DNA of 28,917 nucleotides. It comes from Candidatus Micrarchaeia archaeon. GTDB taxonomy: Archaea; Micrarchaeota; Micrarchaeia; Burarchaeales; JAVZCV01. The DNA lies in the NCBI GenBank assembly GCA_038874215.1, contig JAVZCV010000014.1:1-28917 (forward strand), in the 5' to 3' direction. A model generated the notes under the pieces. That model worked only from the letters and a program-made list of their open reading frames with translations. It was not told where the DNA came from and searched no databases. The number at the start of each line of letters is the position of its first letter. Within the stretch, counting starts at the first letter, position 1. Below, piece after piece: positions 2,679-21,473 of the stretch. The position numbers and the translations under genes are program-made.

Positions 2679-2732
2679 TTGTCCAAACTCTTCTTTCTTT
2701 TTATGAAACTTTTCTTTTGAAAGAAAAGTTCC
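2679..2732 (-). other. tRNA-Gly D-loop intron at 15/16 (54 nt)
   Basis: BHB-like: GUCU/GGAC helix, AG|G and AA|C bulges, intron helix GAACUUUUC/GAAGAGUUU. Confidence 0.85.
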
Positions 2733-2816
2733 CTAGACTACGGCCGCATCGGCATTATATTGGCGGGATAAAAATAAAAATGGATAGATGGGAAAATGGG
2801 GGGACCGAGATTTGAA

Positions 2817-2894
2817 TTCCCGTGCCCTTTCTGTTCTTTCGGAATCGCTTTTTATTTGGGGTTGAGCACTTTCTTTTCCGAAAAAGAAAGGGCT
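2817..2894 (-). other. tRNA-Pro intron at 53/54 (78 nt)
   Basis: CCCG/CGGG central helix, AG|A and AA|U bulges, GCCCUUUC/GAAAGGGC intron helix. Confidence 0.83.
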
Positions 2895-2909
2895 CTCGGG
2901 TCTCAGGGT

Positions 2910-2973
2910 TTTCCGCAGCCTTCTGCTTTCTTTTTACGATGCAGCGCTTTTTCTTAAAAAGAAAAAGGGCTGC
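2910..2973 (-). other. tRNA-Pro canonical intron at 37/38 (64 nt)
   Basis: BHB: UUUG/CGGA helix, GG|G and AA|A bulges, CAGCC/GGCUG intron helix. Confidence 0.87.
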
Positions 2974-3065
2974 CCCAAACCCCGAAGCATTGCCAGGCTA
3001 GCCCATCCCCCCATGAAGTTATGGATTAGGTAGGAAAGGCATTTAAGTATTCGGCATGTGCGCTG

Positions 3066-3485: not shown

Positions 3486-3695
3486 ATCATGTGAATTTGC
3501 ATAAGGAGAATAAAATGATTTCTGCGAATGAGAAAATAAGAATCGGATGAAGAGAGCAATGCATGAGGATGCAAGGGCTTTAGTAACGGCAGGCTCGCAG
3601 ATCGCGTAAGCTCTCTGCATACACCCCCGTCCTATCAATGCCGTCTGCTACGGCCGCCCATCGCCACCTCGTTTTGAGGATGGCTTCGTCCTTAG

Positions 3696-3739
3696 TTAAG
3701 CCTCCGATAACCATCCTACCAAAAACTGGTTATCGGAGT
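3696..3739 (-). other. 23S intron (~E. coli 2754/2755, 44 nt)
   Basis: Interrupts GAAAGCAU|CUAAG; strict BHB AAGC/GCUU with AU|A and AA|C bulges; 12-bp intron stem CUCCGAUAACCA. Confidence 0.9.
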
Positions 3740-3953
3740 ATGCTTTCAGGACTTATCCATAAGCGCGTAGCTGCCCGGCAGTGCCAAAGACAACCGGTAG
3801 ACCAGAGGCGCCGATCCCCAGTTCCTCTCGTACTTAGGGGACCTTCCTCTCAGGTGGCGAGCACTCCCAGTAGATACTACCGAACTGTCTCGCGACGTTC
3901 TGAACCCAGCTCATGTAGGTCTTTAATGGATGAACAACCCAACCATTGGCGGC

Positions 3954-3996
3954 TTACAGCCTCGCAAACCGTCTGCTGAAAAATGGTTTGCAAGGT
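3954..3996 (-). other. 23S intron (~E. coli 2533, H91 loop, 43 nt)
   Basis: GCAG/CUGU helix, GA|A and AA|G bulges, 11-bp intron stem CCUUGCAAACC/GGUUUGCGAGG. Confidence 0.88.
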
Positions 3997-4053
3997 TCCT
4001 GCACCGCCAGGATGACCTAAGCCGACAGCGATGTACCAAACCGCGGGGTCGAT

Positions 4054-4112
4054 TCGTACAAACTTTCTTTCCTTTCTTTTGATGAAACTTTTCTTTAGGA
4101 AAGAAAAGCTTT
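4054..4112 (-). other. 23S intron (~E. coli 2477/2478, H89, 59 nt)
   Basis: Strict BHB: GUAC/GUAC helix, CC|A and GA|A bulges, both flanking helices paired. Confidence 0.9.
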
Positions 4113-4609
4113 GGGTACTCTCGCCCGCGACGAGCCTGTTACCCCCGGGGTAGCTTTTCTGACAGCTTGGGCCCCCATTAAAAGGGACACCAAGGTTCGT
4201 TAGGCCCTGCTTTCGCACCTGCGTGCCCTGCTGTGCGGCACACAGTCAGTCCTGCATTTGTCCTTAACCCTTAACGGCGGATTTCTGACCCGCCTAAGCA
4301 GAACTTTGGGCGCCCTTGTTTCCCTATCGAGGGCGTACCGCCCCAGCCAAACTATCCACCTGCCGCTGTCCCCTTCCGGGTGAGAGGCACGGTCCTCGTT
4401 GAGTGGTGTTACACTTTCGCCTCCGCATCCCCCGAGAGGAATGCCTCTGCGGCTCCCACTTACGCTCCGCAACAAAAACCATGCCCCAACAACAGGCTAT
4501 AGTAAAGCTCCACGGGGTCTTCGTTTCCCACTGGGAGTCCTCCGCATATTCACGGAGAAGTGAGTTCACCAGGTCCCGGGTAGGGACAGTGGGAGAGTCG
4601 TTATGCCCT

Positions 4610-4648
4610 TTCCACCGGCATCAATATATAAAAATGGATTGATGCCGT
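4610..4648 (-). other. 23S intron (~E. coli 1969/1970, 39 nt)
   Basis: 10-bp hairpin CGGCAUCAAU/AUUGAUGCCG inserted in GCAUGA..GGCAUAACG; relaxed BHB with 3 of 4 central pairs; register uncertain. Confidence 0.78.
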
Positions 4649-4748
4649 TCATGCAAGCCGCCAATTAAGCGGCGAGGTACTACGCTACCTTAAGAGGGTC
4701 AGAGTTACCCCCGCTCTTTACCGGCGCTTTGCTCCGTTGGAACGGAGT

Positions 4749-4781
4749 TTCGCCGAACCATTCTATATAAAGAAAGGTTCT
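4749..4781 (-). other. 23S intron (~E. coli 1854, H68, 33 nt)
   Basis: CGUC/GGCG helix, AA|A bulges on both strands, GAACC/GGUUC intron helix. Confidence 0.85.
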
Positions 4782-5724
4782 TTGACGTACCGGCAGTGAG
4801 CAGGCATCGGCCGCTATACTAAGCCTTACGGCTTTGCAGCGACCTGTGTTTTTGGTAAACAGTCGCTCTCCCCTTGTCACTGCGACCTGCGATTCCACTT
4901 GCGCAGAAACGCAGGCATGGCTTCTCCCGAAGTTACGCCACTAATTTGCCGAATTCCCTTACCCGAGTTCTCCTGACACGCCTGAGCCTTTTCAGCCAGC
5001 AACACCTGTACTGGTTCTAGGTACGGTCATGCGGAATCGTATTGGCTCCCTTTTCACGGGCTCAAGGAATTGACCGAACTGGCTTGCGCCAGCCATTCCC
5101 AAGATTAGGCTGCTTCTCCTCATAACGAGTCTCCACAGCCTTGCCTTGGTTAGACAGCCGAAGCTGCTCGGCCTATCCCCAAGCGTCAGGAACCAATATT
5201 GCGTTGCCGCGTCTATCCGCATGGCACGGGAATTTTAACCCGTTTCCCTTTCGCCACCGAGTAATTGGCTGGTGGCTTAGGACCGGCTTACTCTTGGCTG
5301 ACGAACGTTGCCAAGAAAACCGTGTGCTTTCGGCGTCCAGGATTCTCGCCTGGATTTGCTGTTACTAACACCAGGATGTTCATTCCTAATCGGTCCATCG
5401 GACCTCACGGCCCGACTTCTACCCGATCAGGACGCCCCCCTACCAGCACTTTGCTATGCAAAGTGCTCCGAGGTATCGGCACCAGACTTAGCCCCGAGCA
5501 TCTTCGGAACCTGCAATCTCGGCTGGTCCGCTATTACGCGTTGTTTAAAGGATGGCTGCTTCTAAGCCTACCTCCCAGCTGTTTTAGATTGGAGATTCCT
5601 TGTGGATTCGCACTTAGTCTGGATTTAGGGGCCTTAACCCCGGTCTCGGTCGTTCCCGTTCAGGCATGCTAGCTTACCCAGCATGCCCAACTCCTGCCTT
5701 CTACGGCGACGATGGATTCGGAGT

Positions 5725-5759
5725 TTTGTCGACCTTTTCTTTTTAAAAGAAAAGGTTCT
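5725..5759 (-). other. 23S intron (~E. coli 910, H38, 35 nt)
   Basis: UGUC/GACA helix, AA|A bulges, ACCUUUUCUUUU/AAAAGAAAAGGU hairpin. Confidence 0.87.
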
Positions 5760-5921
5760 TTGACAAAGTGGTAGAGCCTTTCGGCTCCGTGCCACTTAAT
5801 CAGTGCTCTACCCCATCGTCTGCCTCTAGCAGGGCTATTCTGAGGAATACTTTGGGGGGAACCCGCTATCGCCGAGTTCGATAGGACTTTCACCCCTACA
5901 CGCAGGTCACCTAAGCAGATA

Positions 5922-5984
5922 TTCCAGACAGCGATGGCAATTTAGAAAAACAGCCATCGCCGCTTACTAGCACTAGATGCGGGC
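5922..5984 (-). other. 23S intron (~E. coli 745-750, H35 loop, 63 nt)
   Basis: CUAG/CUGG helix, UA|A and AA|U bulges, 11-bp intron stem GCGGCGAUGGC/GCCAUCGCUGU; exon is divergent so the boundary rests on the BHB register. Confidence 0.78.
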
Positions 5985-6595
5985 CTCCACCGTCTTGGAA
6001 GACGGCTTCGCCCTGCCCACGTGTAGCTCACATCGGCTTCGGGTCTCATGAGAGTGATTAACCGCACTTTCATACGGCGGGCCTCCCTTTCGGTGCGCCC
6101 TATCGCTTTCGCTACGCCTTTCAGCTCACCACTCCCATGAACTCCCTGGCTCTTGCTTCGAGAAGAACGATGCAACCCTGTTTGGCGTTGGCTCGCTCAT
6201 CGCATCTCTGCGAATTGCTTCGCCACGCTACATTCCTTTCGGGCAGCATCGACCTGTAGTCTCTCAGTTTCAGGCTCTTTTCACTCCCCTTCCGGGGTAC
6301 TTTTCAGCTTTTGCTCGCGCTACTAGTGCGCTATCGGTCTCGGGTTATATTTAGGGTTGGATGTTAATACACCCATATTCACGCCCCATACCCGAGGGGC
6401 GCTACTCACCGCTCATCCTTCCCCATGCCTACGCCTACGGGGCTATCACCCTCTATGGCAGAGCTTTCCAGCTCTCTTCGGCTCGGCAGAAGGGATAGTT
6501 GATGAGCACCACATCTCCCACACATTACTGTGCAGGATTCAGGTTGCCCTGTGCGGCTTTCAGTCGCCCTTACTAACCGCATCCCTTTTGGTTTC

Positions 6596-6637
6596 TTAGA
6601 ATTTTGCCAACCTCATTCAAAAACGGGTTGGCAAAAT
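6596..6637 (-). other. 23S intron (~E. coli 219/220, 42 nt)
   Basis: Interrupts conserved AGGAAAA|GAAA; GGAA/UUCU helix, AA|A and AA|G bulges, UUUUGCCAACC/GGUUGGCAAAA stem. Confidence 0.87.
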
Positions 6638-6939
6638 TTTTCCTGCGGGTACTAAGATGTTTCAATTCCCCGCGTAATTACCCATTACTGGGTTATGGGC
6701 AATCCTGGGTTCAAGGGCTGCCTGCGCCTACCCCAGGCTTATCGCAGCTTGCCACGGCCCACAACTACCCGAGCCTAGCCATCCCCTGAGAGACAGCAAC
6801 AGCATCCGTGAACATGCATCGCCTCTCTTCATCCTCATGACTCTCAAGCATGAGAGCTGCCTTTCGGCGCATTCCCAACAGCGTTGGGACATGCTACTCG
6901 TGAAATGAGTAGTATGAATGTGATATGGACTCGGCGAGA

Positions 6940-6991: not shown

Positions 6992-7013
6992 TTTGAACTC
7001 GCGGCCTCCTCCT

Positions 7014-7045
7014 TATTTGAAACTTTTCTTTTTAAGAAAAGTTCA
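7014..7045 (-). other. tRNA-Ala canonical intron at 37/38 (32 nt)
   Basis: Strict BHB: UUUG/CAAA helix, CG|U and UA|A bulges, GAACUUUUCUU/AAGAAAAGUUU stem. Confidence 0.9.
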
Positions 7046-7596
7046 CGCAAAGGAGGCGCTCTACCACTGAGCTACGAGCCCAACCTTTCAACTGTGTTTC
7101 AAAAGAAACACAGCACAACCCCAAGAACCGAATCCACGCTCTCGCGCCTTGCACGTAAACTAAAGGAGGTGATCTATCCGCAGGTTCCCCTACGGATACC
7201 TTGTTACGACTTAGCCCCCCTCATAAAGCTCTAGTTCGACGCTACCACGAGGATAACGCCTCACTAGAACCTTACTTGGGTGACTTGACGGGCGGTGTGT
7301 GCAAGGAGCGGGGACGTATTCACCGCGCGATGTTGACACGCGATTACTAGGGATTCCAGCTTCATGAGGGCGAGTTTCAGCCCTCAATCCGAACTCAGGC
7401 TAGGTTTGGGGATTAGCTTCTCCTCTCGGAGTCGCAACCCATTGTCCTAGCCATTGTAGGCCACGTGTAGCCCGGGAGATTCAGGGCATACTGACCTACC
7501 GTCGCCCTCTCCTTCCTCCTGCTTAACGCAGGCAGTCTCTACAGAGTGCCCGTTTCAAAAGAAACGGTAGCAACTGTAGACGAGGGTCTCGCTCGT

Positions 7597-8114
7597 TTCC
7601 GGGCCTGCGGGCATCAAACTTTCAAAAATTTAAGATGAGTTTTTACAAAACCAAGAAAATCTGATGAGATGTAAAGAGCACTGCCTATGCGCTTTGTCCT
7701 AAAATTGAGTCTTTCAAGCATGTGCTCGTCTGCTTCGTCGGCTCTTGCTAGGAAGGGCAAGCCTTTGCGGATACCACCACAACCATCAAAAAAGCCTGCG
7801 AGGTATTCTGCGCTCTTTTCGTTCCTTTCTCTGAAAATATTCAAGCGCTCATTGACAACCTTCTGAAAAAACTTTTTGTAAGCGGAGTGATAGAAGTATG
7901 CCTCGTTCTCTTTTATCGTTATCTTATCCCCACGCGTTAGCCCGTTTCTGATGCACTCTGAGACGAATATTCCAACTATTTTTTTGTTTCCTGTTATCCC
8001 TATTCCGTGCTCTCCCCCTCTCGCCTTCCATAGGCCAACTACATATGCGATATTTGGAGTTAGTTTCAGCTTCATTCAATCACTCTTCAATCAACATGAG
8101 GCTGCCCACAGGCA
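7597..8114 (-). mobile_element. 16S rRNA BHB intron (~E. coli 1101/1102, 518 nt) carrying a homing-endonuclease ORF
   Basis: Removal restores AAGUCCGGUA|ACGAGCG; CCGG/CCGG helix, UA|U and AA|A bulges, 11-bp stem GCCUGUGGGCA/UGCCCGCAGGC. Confidence 0.93.
7614..8075 (-). CDS. intron-encoded LAGLIDADG-family protein
   Basis: Two LAGLIDADG-like helices, IAYVVGLWKARGG (degenerate) and EYLAGFFDGCGGI; sense to the rRNA and inside the intron loop. Confidence 0.85.
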   Translation of the reverse strand: MKLKLTPNIAYVVGLWKARGGEHGIGITGNKKIVGIFVSECIRNGLTRGDKITIKENEAYFYHSAYKKFFQKVVNERLNIFRERNEKSAEYLAGFFDGCGGIRKGLPFLARADEADEHMLERLNFRTKRIGSALYISSDFLGFVKTHLKFLKV

Positions 8115-8262
8115 TACCGGACTTAACCGGACAGCTCACACCACGAGCTGACGATGGCCATGCACCACCTCTCGGCTCGTCTGGCAAGATCTTCAGTCTG
8201 GCCTTCATACTGCCGTCTCTCCCGGTAATATTCCCGGCGTTGAATCCAATTGAACCGCAGCC

Positions 8263-8305
<43 letters not shown>

Positions 8306-8518
8306 ACCTTGCGGCCGTACTCCCCAGGCGGCAGACTTAACACCTACGCTACGGCACTGCAACAGCTCTAAGCTGTTGCAACACCACAGTCTGCATAATT
8401 TACTGCTAGGGCTACTCGGGTATCTAATCCGATTCGTTCTCCTAGCCTTCGTCCCTCACCGTCAGACGTGTTTTGGCCAAGCGCCTTCGCCACCGGGAGT
8501 CCTCACAGGATTACAGGA

Positions 8519-8575
8519 TTGTAAGACCCTTCTTTGGTGAAGCTTTCTTTGATTGCTTAATAGGAAGAAAGGTTC
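8519..8575 (-). other. 16S intron (~E. coli 694-697, h23 loop, 57 nt)
   Basis: Interrupts GGGGUAAAA|UCC; GUAA/UUAC helix, AA|G and AA|U bulges. Confidence 0.85.
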
Positions 8576-8861
8576 TTTTACCCCTACCCTGTGAGTACTC
8601 TTGGCCTCCCCCACTCTCAAGCTCCGCAGTATTTCCTGCGCGCCCCCGGGTTAAGCTCGGGGATTTCACAAGAAACTTACAGAGCCGGCTACGGACTCTT
8701 TAGGCCCAATATTCGTGGGCACCACTTGGGCTGCCAGTGTTACCGCGGCGGCTGGCACTGGTCTTACCCAGCCCTTATTCCCCAAGCGGGTTAGACTTGG
8801 GAAAAGGTGCTCCCGTAGAGCACCACTCAGAGTCCCCCCGTCACGCTTTCGCGCATTGCGG

Positions 8862-8892
<31 letters not shown>

Positions 8893-8900
8893 AGGGCCCT

Positions 8901-8945
8901 TGGACACGGTTCTGACCACCCTACTAAAACTCGTCAGAGCCATGT
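8901..8945 (-). other. 16S insertion or intron (~E. coli 329/330, 45 nt)
   Basis: Interrupts CUGAGACA|AGGGCCC; hairpin CAUGGCUCUGAC/GUCAGAACCGUG; central helix only about 2 bp. Confidence 0.75.
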
Positions 8946-9459
8946 TGTCTCAGTGCCCTTCTGGGGGCTCCAACTCCCATTGCCCCCACTGATTATCGGC
9001 TTGGTGGGCCGTTACCCCACCAACAACCTAATCAGCCGCAGTCCTTTCCTCAGGCGGGCTGGCTGCATTTCGCCAGTCCTTTTAGACCATCAAGCATTCC
9101 AGCATAGATGGCCTATCGGGTATTAGCCTCAGTTTCCCGAGGTTATCCCCGTCCTGAGGGTAAGTTGACTACGTGCTACTCAGCCGTTCGCCGCCCTCGG
9201 AAGCCCGAGAGCAGACTTGCATGGCTTAGTCGGACTCTGATAGCAGTGCCCTCCAGCAGGATCAACTGGAGTTTTCACGAATAGAGTACGCCACAAAGCG
9301 GATCAGCAGTGGAACACACTTGTTTCGTGTCGGTTCTTGAGGTCTCAGTCTAACCCAAGAGTCTTGGGTTACCATCGGTCATGTAGGCTGTAGTGGATAG
9401 AATGTTCATTGCACGAAAAAAATCGCGCTCTATTCGGCCAGGACTACAGCCGAATCGGG

Positions 9460-21272: not shown

Positions 21273-21297
21273 AAAAAATGCCAAGGGCGGGATTTGA

Positions 21298-21329
21298 TTG
21301 CGGGACCATTCGGCTTTTCCGAACGACCT
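21298..21329 (-). other. tRNA-Met intron at 54/55 (32 nt)
   Basis: GCGG/CCGC helix, GU|A and AA|U bulges, GGUCGUUCGG/CCGAAUGGUC stem. Confidence 0.88.
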
Positions 21330-21346
21330 ACCCGCGACATCCAGAT

Positions 21347-21398
21347 ATCCCGCGAGCGCTTTTGATTTCATTGCACATGGCTCATAACTCATACGCCG
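21347..21398 (-). other. tRNA-Met intron at 37/38 (52 nt, possibly two stacked introns)
   Basis: Insertion at the canonical site containing tandem UAUGAG copies complementary to the anticodon loop. Confidence 0.85.
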
Positions 21399-21473
21399 TA
21401 TGAGTCTGGCGCTCTAACCAGGCTGAGCTACCTTGGCATAAAATTTTTCCAGGAGATATTTTTATACTCTACC

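Follow-up and report, generated by a model that had tools for sequence, protein, structure and literature searches.

Two related bulge–helix–bulge mini-introns at an identical 11-nucleotide target in different domains of a Micrarchaeia 23S rRNA gene

The stretch of DNA analyzed here (hereafter, the window) comprises the 28,917 nucleotides of contig JAVZCV010000014.1 from the assembly GCA_038874215.1 of a Candidatus Micrarchaeia archaeon, this being contig C14 of a genome of 1.13 Mb, 38 contigs, and 45% G+C, with the genomes of its kin ranging from 0.5 to 1.8 Mb. An rRNA operon lies on the minus strand, to which all the operon coordinates below refer, and an Rfam search placed its 16S gene at 9272..7164, a tRNA at 7081..6994, and the 23S gene at 6811..3563, the last matching the full LSU_rRNA_archaea model with 2397.9 bits and containing eight mini-introns that resemble the bulge–helix–bulge (BHB) type. 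Two of these, of 35 and 33 nt, are the subject of this work; they interrupt the sites that the first-pass annotation had labelled H38 and H68, which labels we retain, the H68-labelled site being located just 5′ of the H69 sequence. Insertions in the 23S gene were placed by comparison with 29, and later 129, other 23S sequences, the resulting set of 130 consisting of an initial 30 plus 100 taken from the best-scoring listed rows of a search of 401 genomes of the class, with 237 other rows of that search remaining outside the set and two unpublished entries being excluded. The window's own genome is designated G000, and the relatives compared by name are G009 (23S locus L008), G358, G038, and G010 (16S locus L049).

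The H38-site mini-intron (5725..5759), delimited by insertion mapping and folding, is composed of an A, a hairpin GAACCUUUUCUUUU/AAAAGAAAAGGUC, and the 3′ tetramer GACA followed by AA. Its 5′ exon is GUCAA (5760..5764), the bases UGUC at 5762–5765 pairing with the intron GACA, and its 3′ exon is ACUCCG (5719..5724), which aligns within the conserved AAACUCCGAAU; the succession of exon, intron, and exon reads UUUGUCAA / AGAACCUUUUCUUUUAAAAAGAAAAGGUCGACAA / ACUCCGAAU, between the wider flanks CACUUUGUCAA and ACUCCGAAUCC. The H68-site mini-intron (4749..4781), delimited in the same manner, is composed of an A, a hairpin GAACC..GGUUC, and the 3′ tetramer GGCG followed by AA; there the 5′ exon GUCAA (4782..4786) contributes to the pairing of CGUC (4784–4787) with the intron GGCG, and the CUCCG of the 3′ exon ACUCCG (4743..4748) forms the 5′ arm of a native hairpin, CUCCGUUCCAACGGAG. 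This second succession reads UACGUCAA / AGAACCUUUCUUUAUAUAGAAUGGUUCGGCGAA / ACUCCGUU, with CGGUACGUCAA and ACUCCGUUCCAACGGAG as wider flanks.

The first-pass annotation had maintained that the two inserts share their target, their start, and a 3′ tetramer that changes in step with the exon, and that they reside in different domains of the 23S rRNA, and on all these points we agree. Once the inserts are removed, GUCAA/ACUCCG is restored at both sites, as can be read directly in the sequence; the start AGAACCUUU is common to the two introns; the pairs GACA:UGUC and GGCG:CGUC are complete, with 4/4 pairs each; and the sites fall at positions ~1030 and ~1975 of the 2987 in the Rfam model. The placement of the inserts and the shared target, moreover, both hold in the alignment with 29 relatives. 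The exon-tracking tetramers are in fact the intron strand of the central BHB helix. Introns of 33 and 35 nt have no room for an open reading frame (ORF), and hence encode no homing endonuclease; nor did any Rfam family of group I or group II ribozyme cores attain the gathering score in the window, the inserts being in any event far too short for such a core.

All eight 23S inserts in the window fit the BHB geometry at their exact borders. The central helix is formed by four 5′-exon bases and four intron bases, each run ending two bases before its junction, and has 4/4 pairs in seven inserts and 3/4 in one, with a 3-nt A-rich bulge on each strand that holds the junction; the interior hairpins measure 9–16 bp, and the outer exon–exon helix is mostly missing (0–4 bp). 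The focal introns, with their AAA bulges, inner helices of 12 bp (H38) and 9 bp (H68), and outer helix of 0 bp, possess the BHB in its relaxed HBh′ form. Their minimum-free-energy folds are this very structure, namely (CGUC)AAA(GAACC..GGUUC)(GGCG)AAA and (UGUC)AAA(GA.CC...GGUC)(GACA)AAA, and for the H68 intron that minimum lies at −13.2 kcal/mol with z = −2.6. Excision of the inserts restores conserved sequence, as judged against both the 29 relatives and the 129 other 23S sequences, so that the insertions are precise.

The genome encodes the proteins that such introns would require. The splicing endonuclease EndA, the only one in this genome, is encoded on contig C2 (PF01974, 105 bits, plus PF02778) as a protein of 385 aa that has an N-terminal domain and, side by side, two domains of catalytic type, and the RtcB ligase is encoded on contig C11 (588 bits). 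A three-unit epsilon-2 endonuclease cuts relaxed motifs, according to the portion of that report available to us (PMC3239211), and the EndA of the present host is like the enzyme described there by domain order only. The same tandem-domain EndA is found in the intron-rich G009, G358, and G038 and also in G022 and G019, whose 23S is free of insertions, and because all five genomes share a single-frame endonuclease with two catalytic domains, we discarded the endonuclease type as the cause of the intron load, which this enzyme type leaves unexplained.

The evidence from sequencing runs consisted of assembled contigs. A DNA contig from run X1 covers 5549–6456, both introns of that interval included, with 0 differences. 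A contig from the RNA run, X2 rec12, has 3 differences in 278 aligned letters and joins 5921 to 5965, skipping exactly 5922–5964, which is the neighboring 43-nt mini-intron; its match ends at 5759, the edge of the H38 intron and the position where a spliced GUCAA-A junction would depart from the genomic sequence, though the contig may also derive from an intron-free near relative. Two other contig joints, 5726→6267 and 4053→4115, were set aside as splice evidence, in that they come from conserved blocks of other organisms. Splicing at the two focal sites is likely.

The native state of both sites can be read in the relatives. At H38 none of the 29 relatives has an insert (0/29), and in the 23S alignment they read GTC AAACTCCG, that is, ..(U/C)(U/G)UC AAACUCCGAAU; at H68, 28 of the 29 are without an insert and read ACGUCAAACUCYG (GTCAAACTCYG as DNA) or variants thereof, the remaining one, G009 (L008), having a different insert, of 108 nt, at exactly the same bond. 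In the full set of 130 the occupancy is 2/130 at either site: G009 has the H68 intron only, G358 the H38 intron only, the window's genome both, and 127 of the 130 neither, which distribution supplies the survey of relatives with one, both, or neither that had been proposed along with the original observation. In those 127 the H38 site is GTCAAACTCCG in 67 and NTCAAACTCCG in 117, and the twin sites, compared by anchoring on their flanks because the AAA run is ambiguous in alignment, are alike at 10/11 or better in seven, L017 having the full 11/11. Since intron-free relatives carry the same sequence, the 11-mer is an older property of the rRNA that was not brought in by the introns: the shared 11-mer predates the inserts. 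The nearest neighbor of G009, at a tree distance of 0.021, is without the H68 intron, and the nearest neighbors of the window's genome are without both, so that the intron gains look recent and separate. Of two wider scans, one with the exact 19-mer adjoining the H38 site gave four matches in metagenomes, none of them in rRNA, and the other, with a pattern of intron start plus target, gave a single match in species-representative genomes, on a bacterial contig, which we took as chance.

The identity of the two targets is beyond chance. Splicing of the 23S gene in silico yields 2,911 nt, in which the 11-mer is present at exactly two places; only one other independent 11-mer is repeated there, and of ~200,000 position pairs drawn at random from this sequence not one matched at 11/11. 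The BHB-like 23S sites of the 130 genomes amount to 38 distinct sites and 695 pairs, among which the twin is the sole pair with 11/11 matches, the next best having 9/11. Intron sites in this class are biased in composition (with G prevailing from −6 to −3 and A at −2, −1, and +1), and shuffling by columns among the 38 sites, a procedure that keeps the A-rich site composition, produced an 11/11 pair in 0.2% of 2,000 shuffles and at least two site pairs at ≥9/11 in 4.5%. Further copies of the target, which were to be sought throughout the genome, proved to be absent in uninterrupted form from the 1.13 Mb (0 found, ~0.47 expected), and 12 copies with one mismatch were located elsewhere.

The focal introns are related to each other: they share ~71% identity end to end with two 1-nt gaps, an exact 9-nt 5′ end, the same layout, and a nearly equal length, and their local (Smith–Waterman) alignment attains a score of 30, whereas composition-matched shuffles give 11.1 ± 2.6 and reach 30 in 0/500 cases. 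The hairpin of both belongs to a polypyrimidine/polypurine family, GAAC(C)UUUUCUU...AAGAAAAG(G)UUC, which blastn-short against the genome recovered at many other loci. Within the operon, sequence comparison identified one of these as a 57-nt mini-intron in the 16S gene (8519..8575) with the 12-nt 5′ end GAACCUUUCUU, as in the focal introns, at the unrelated target GGGGUAAAA/UCCUG; at the same 16S position G010 (L049) has an intron with a similar polypyrimidine/polypurine hairpin. Another is the canonical-position intron of the operon tRNA (6994..7081; Rfam tRNA, 30.3 bits; anticodon UGC by eye), whose hairpin GAACUUUUCUUAAAAAGAAAAGUUUC, according to blastn-short and folding, comes near the core of the H38 intron.

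Beyond the window, G358, which belongs to another family of the class, has a 107-nt intron at H38, where the exon is GUUAUCAA/ACUCCG and UAUC:GGUG makes up the central helix. That intron and the 108-nt H68 intron of G009 are collinear homologues over their full length, with a score of 57 against 19.8 ± 4.1, and rank third among the 2,544 pairs that 74 mini-introns form between sites. An intron lineage has therefore moved from one of the two sites to the other on at least one occasion. The window's H38 mini-intron, in turn, matches the 5′ portion of one long form and the 3′ portion of its counterpart (scores of 31 and 32; 0/500 shuffles each). One and the same lineage is consequently found at H68 in one genome, at H38 in another, and at both sites in the window; and where unrelated introns at the two sites in relatives would have spoken against a jump, homologous ones were encountered instead.

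We propose that both inserts are BHB mini-introns of the relaxed HBh′ type that belong to one lineage and spread ectopically between two look-alike sites, a reading to which we assign a probability of about 0.6. In the precursor rRNA, the 5′-exon UGUC or CGUC would pair with the intron 3′ tetramer GACA or GGCG, the splice site would lie in the AAA bulge of each strand with the cut at AA/A, and the remainder of the intron would constitute the inner hairpin; the single three-unit-like endonuclease would then cut and RtcB would join, with GUCAA-ACUCCG being restored. A copy arriving at the twin site would immediately form a functional BHB again, given that the 5′ exon found there would still pair with the old tetramer and supply the same A-rich bulge letters, and the tetramer would either be tuned to full Watson–Crick pairing afterwards or already be so. 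The target-directed ectopic jump that the first-pass annotation had put forward accordingly stands in its general form, that of one lineage at both look-alike sites, whereas the crossing within this particular genome, along with its direction, is something that we infer. The compensatory change that had been joined to the jump is borne out to the extent that the tetramer tracks the exon; yet in the direction from H68 to H38 no such change would be needed, inasmuch as GGCG pairs with CGUC and, through a G–U wobble, with UGUC as well. The direction from H38 to H68 would begin with one C–A mismatch, and a 3/4 helix does exist in one of the window's eight introns. The clues to direction are in conflict: the wobble favors H68 to H38, but the similarity to the long forms favors H38 as an intermediate, only the H38 mini-intron resembling them.

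A number of observations weigh against this proposal. Regarding splicing, among the contigs listed for the window's organism there is none that spans the junction at H68, and in the X2 contig the initial 96 letters, beyond the H38 edge, lie outside the listed data. Regarding common ancestry, a blastn-short search of the genome with both introns did not pair them, Smith–Waterman alone having done so, and the H68 mini-intron is not significantly like either long form (p = 0.31 and 0.07). Regarding the target, homologous cores occupy unrelated ones, both in G038, at sites 1151 and 2319 (2–5/11 matches), and in the window's 16S and tRNA-Ala genes, so that target identity is not required by the focal intron family; the GC-rich family of G009 behaves likewise, occupying targets with 3–6/11 matches, each tetramer fitting its own exon. 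The twin sites, in addition, are alike at ≥10/11 and yet both empty in L002, L004, L010, L017, L026, L028, and L074, and G009, with its 10/11 twin, has H68 alone filled. A reverse transcriptase domain, finally, was not found in the genome, of an estimated 91% completeness, which leaves a route at the RNA level with no obvious way back into DNA.

The resemblance of the targets could nevertheless be a product of selection rather than of insertion. If copies were inserted almost at random and only those forming a BHB survived in the single rRNA operon, the match in CUCCG would be accidental, an explanation that we regard as quite unlikely in spite of several points in its favor. The motif YGYYAAA, wobble-compatible with GGCG, occurs at three places in the spliced 23S and at none in the spliced 16S sequence, and two of the three are the occupied sites; with a GGCG-like tetramer and AAA bulges only those three rRNA positions would qualify, so that the double occupancy would need no recognition of an 11-mer, and under so strict a filter a landing at the twin would have a chance of about one in two, with the CUCCG half adding little evidence. 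For the 5′ half of the 11-mer, GGCG pairing plus AAA is thus sufficient as a functional explanation. The twin 11-mer, furthermore, is present in intron-free relatives, about one repeated 11-mer would be expected by chance in 2.9 kb as against the two seen, and unrelated targets are common among related introns. The actual filter, however, would appear to be looser, since the bulge letters vary in other introns: those of the 5′ exon in the window's eight introns are AA, UA, AA, AA, GA, CC, GA, and AU, and a filter of the form YGYY.A. admits 19 sites in 23S and 8 in 16S, among which 27 sites CUCCG would add more, the evidence suggesting that this looser filter is nearer the truth. In the window no intron occupies the third strict candidate, which lies at spliced position 582. 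The twin motif, for its part, accounts for four occupancies, two in G000 and one each in G009 and G358, and ACUCYG recurs as the 3′ exon of a third site, GGGGGUA/ACUCUG, which is occupied in 7 of the 130. A second intron pair in G009, at the look-alike UGAAAG/U.C.AU (9/11; sites 713 and 852; similar 3′ tetramers, GUCG and GUCA), is a further hint in the same direction, and these hints of a role for the target beyond the tetramer are suggestive.

A different possibility is that in the window's lineage the introns underwent same-site homing only, the cross-site event having taken place earlier and elsewhere, with both copies later shrinking to mini-introns. Along this route, rDNA containing the introns would have been taken up and then have recombined homologously through its flanks, and the conserved flanks of rRNA genes do ease same-site recombination of this kind, in which intron homing proceeds by flank homology. 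The occurrence of a long form of ~108 nt at each site in a distant genome is in keeping with such a history, as is the resemblance of the window's H38 mini-intron to the ends of the long forms. Two independent internal deletions, on the other hand, would not obviously lead to a common exact 9-nt 5′ end, the same layout, and a near-equal length, and the H68 mini-intron is like its H38 partner but not like the long form at its own site (score 15, p = 0.31), for which reasons we deem this history rather unlikely. That the inserts might not be introns at all, and instead be hairpin expansion segments retained in the mature rRNA or else artefacts of assembly, seems highly improbable. Unspliced rRNA insertions are known in small-genome lineages, and splicing at the two focal sites is not directly demonstrated; but a 4-bp helix with 3-nt bulges is found at the exact borders of all eight inserts, the RNA contig drops the neighboring insert at the predicted bonds and departs from the window at the H38 border, the H38 region recurs without a single difference in a DNA contig that was assembled independently, and the inserts break highly conserved sequence.

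How a copy of the mini-intron would reach its new site under ectopic spread is a matter on which we offer a tentative and rather doubtful suggestion: an insertion mechanism that reads ~11 nt across both exons, with GUCAA/ACUCCG-type sites serving as homing and ectopic-homing targets throughout the class. Such an insertion could come about if the endonuclease and ligase ran their reaction backwards on mature rRNA, or if a DNA endonuclease acting in trans worked together with microhomology repair. Other schemes were considered and rejected. A target-site duplication, looked for by eye, is contradicted by flanks that are not direct repeats at either H68 or tRNA-Ala; the idea that a circular intron forms a BHB in trans with mature rRNA, likewise assessed by eye, fails because CUCCG has no pairing with the intron 3′ arm and GAACC none with the exon upstream; a hairpin element like IS200/IS605 does not agree with the unrelated 5′ sequences that the genome's other introns are seen by eye to follow; and a fold-back copying of the exon tetramer would have copied the bulge too.

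The remaining six inserts of the 23S gene are, in the order of the rRNA, a 42-nt BHB mini-intron at 6596..6637 (insertion mapping and BHB register); the 43-nt one at 5922..5964, assigned by its register to another family, with a GUUUUU-type loop, and skipped in the joint 5921–5965 of the RNA contig X2 rec12; a 39-nt one with 3/4 central-helix pairs at 4610..4648 (insertion mapping and BHB register); a 59-nt BHB insert at 4054..4112, whose site is occupied in many relatives and whose core is like tRNA-intron hairpins (mapping and blastn-short); a 43-nt mini-intron at 3954..3996 (BHB register); and a 44-nt one at 3696..3739, whose core, by intron comparison, has relatives among the introns that G009, L014, and L063 carry at other sites. 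Those at 3696–3739, 3954–3996, 4610–4648, 5922–5964, and 6596–6637 have a second design in common, consisting of a long stem and a ..GUUUUU.. loop, and the core of 3696–3739 recurs at 23S site 2321 of G009 (L008) and site 2282 of L014 and L063. The 23S gene of G009 contains 12 BHB-like inserts, three of them near-identical GC-rich introns (GCGCGUCGCGU.UUUUUCAGCGCGCGC) at unrelated targets. Elsewhere in the class, the 23S sites 1937 and 2464 share GGGGGUA/AC (CGGGGGTA/ACTCTGAC and CGGGGGTA/ACAGGCTC) and are occupied in 7 and 10 of the 130, by inserts of 37–671 nt, the long ones possibly with endonuclease genes.

The 16S gene has a second insert, of ~509 nt (7606–8114), part of which (query 1383–1502) matches G010; its ORF (7614–8075, 153 aa) contains LAGFFDGCGG, and a LAGLIDADG-like reading of it by eye was dropped as unsupported, the ORF having no Pfam match. 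On the minus strand at 2560–2760 and 2800–3000, and also at 21279–21437, lie tRNA-like genes split by several hairpin inserts of the CUUUUCUUU/AAAGAAAAG type; ARAGORN found no tRNA in the whole window, and Rfam only two, one of them of 159 nt. By eye, the 59-nt insert at 4054–4112 and an insert of a tRNA-like gene at ~2690–2740 (minus) share ..AAAGAAAAGUUUCAU.AAAAGAAAG..GUUUG, a similarity of sequence suggesting that tRNA and rRNA genes have exchanged intron cores.

Group I introns transpose ectopically by reverse splicing into short complementary targets. The introns described here are like them in that a few intron–exon base pairs set where a new copy works, so that look-alike rRNA sites become filled; they differ in that proteins carry out both the cutting and the joining of BHB introns; in addition, the window yielded no Rfam ribozyme family and the genome no reverse transcriptase domain. 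A closer likeness is to the tRNA genes of the Thermoproteales, in which, as far as the accessible accounts relate, a large-scale transposition of BHB introns was described (Fujishima et al., 2010, as cited in PMC4090602, PMC4390854, and PMC10714607), by a mechanism stated as unknown in the available part of a review, where the BHB requirement is held to be what may specify the targets (PMC4090602). Relative to those accounts, the likeness consists in similar ORF-less BHB introns at different stable-RNA positions, gained after the species diverged. Closely similar introns at different gene positions are thus present in both settings; the location in Thermoproteales tRNA genes is not, for here the introns interrupt 23S and 16S rRNA genes, and their small-genome host possesses a three-unit-like endonuclease. 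The present case further differs, as far as those accounts go, in having an identical 11-nt target twice, the same lineage at each target elsewhere, and an exon-pairing tetramer that is traceable base by base. We read the focal pair as a variant of archaeal BHB-intron transposition.

ORF-less introns are also present in the rRNA genes of the Thermoproteaceae and Aeropyrum, where I-PogI cuts the site of a neighboring ORF-less intron (Nakayama et al., 2003, as reported in the accessible text of PMC4496867). Common to that system, to the extent that it is described there, and to ours are small ORF-less BHB introns in rRNA genes at fixed sites that recur across lineages, and here, too, an endonuclease encoded elsewhere could mobilize the introns; unlike in the Thermoproteaceae so described, no endonuclease is linked to the sites, and the introns, of 33–35 nt, are little beyond a BHB. 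The sole intron ORF in the window, that of 153 aa in the 16S gene, matches no Pfam family and is located at a site unlike the 11-mer. A search of full-text literature, which covered few subscription journals and the articles proper apart from their supplements, retrieved no paper on such 23S mini-introns in DPANN-type archaea or on the occupancy of twin targets.

On the manner in which ORF-less archaeal BHB introns choose new sites the focal pair offers a rare clue. With one lineage at two sites, an identical 11-nt context, a 4-nt element that differs at key positions, and further occurrences elsewhere, the question of whether exon pairing alone, or the recognition of both exon halves, decides where these introns live becomes a testable one. 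The many mini-introns in the rRNA of some small-genome archaea, with 8 in the 23S gene of the window and 12 in that of G009, matter in addition for rRNA-based surveys and for annotation.

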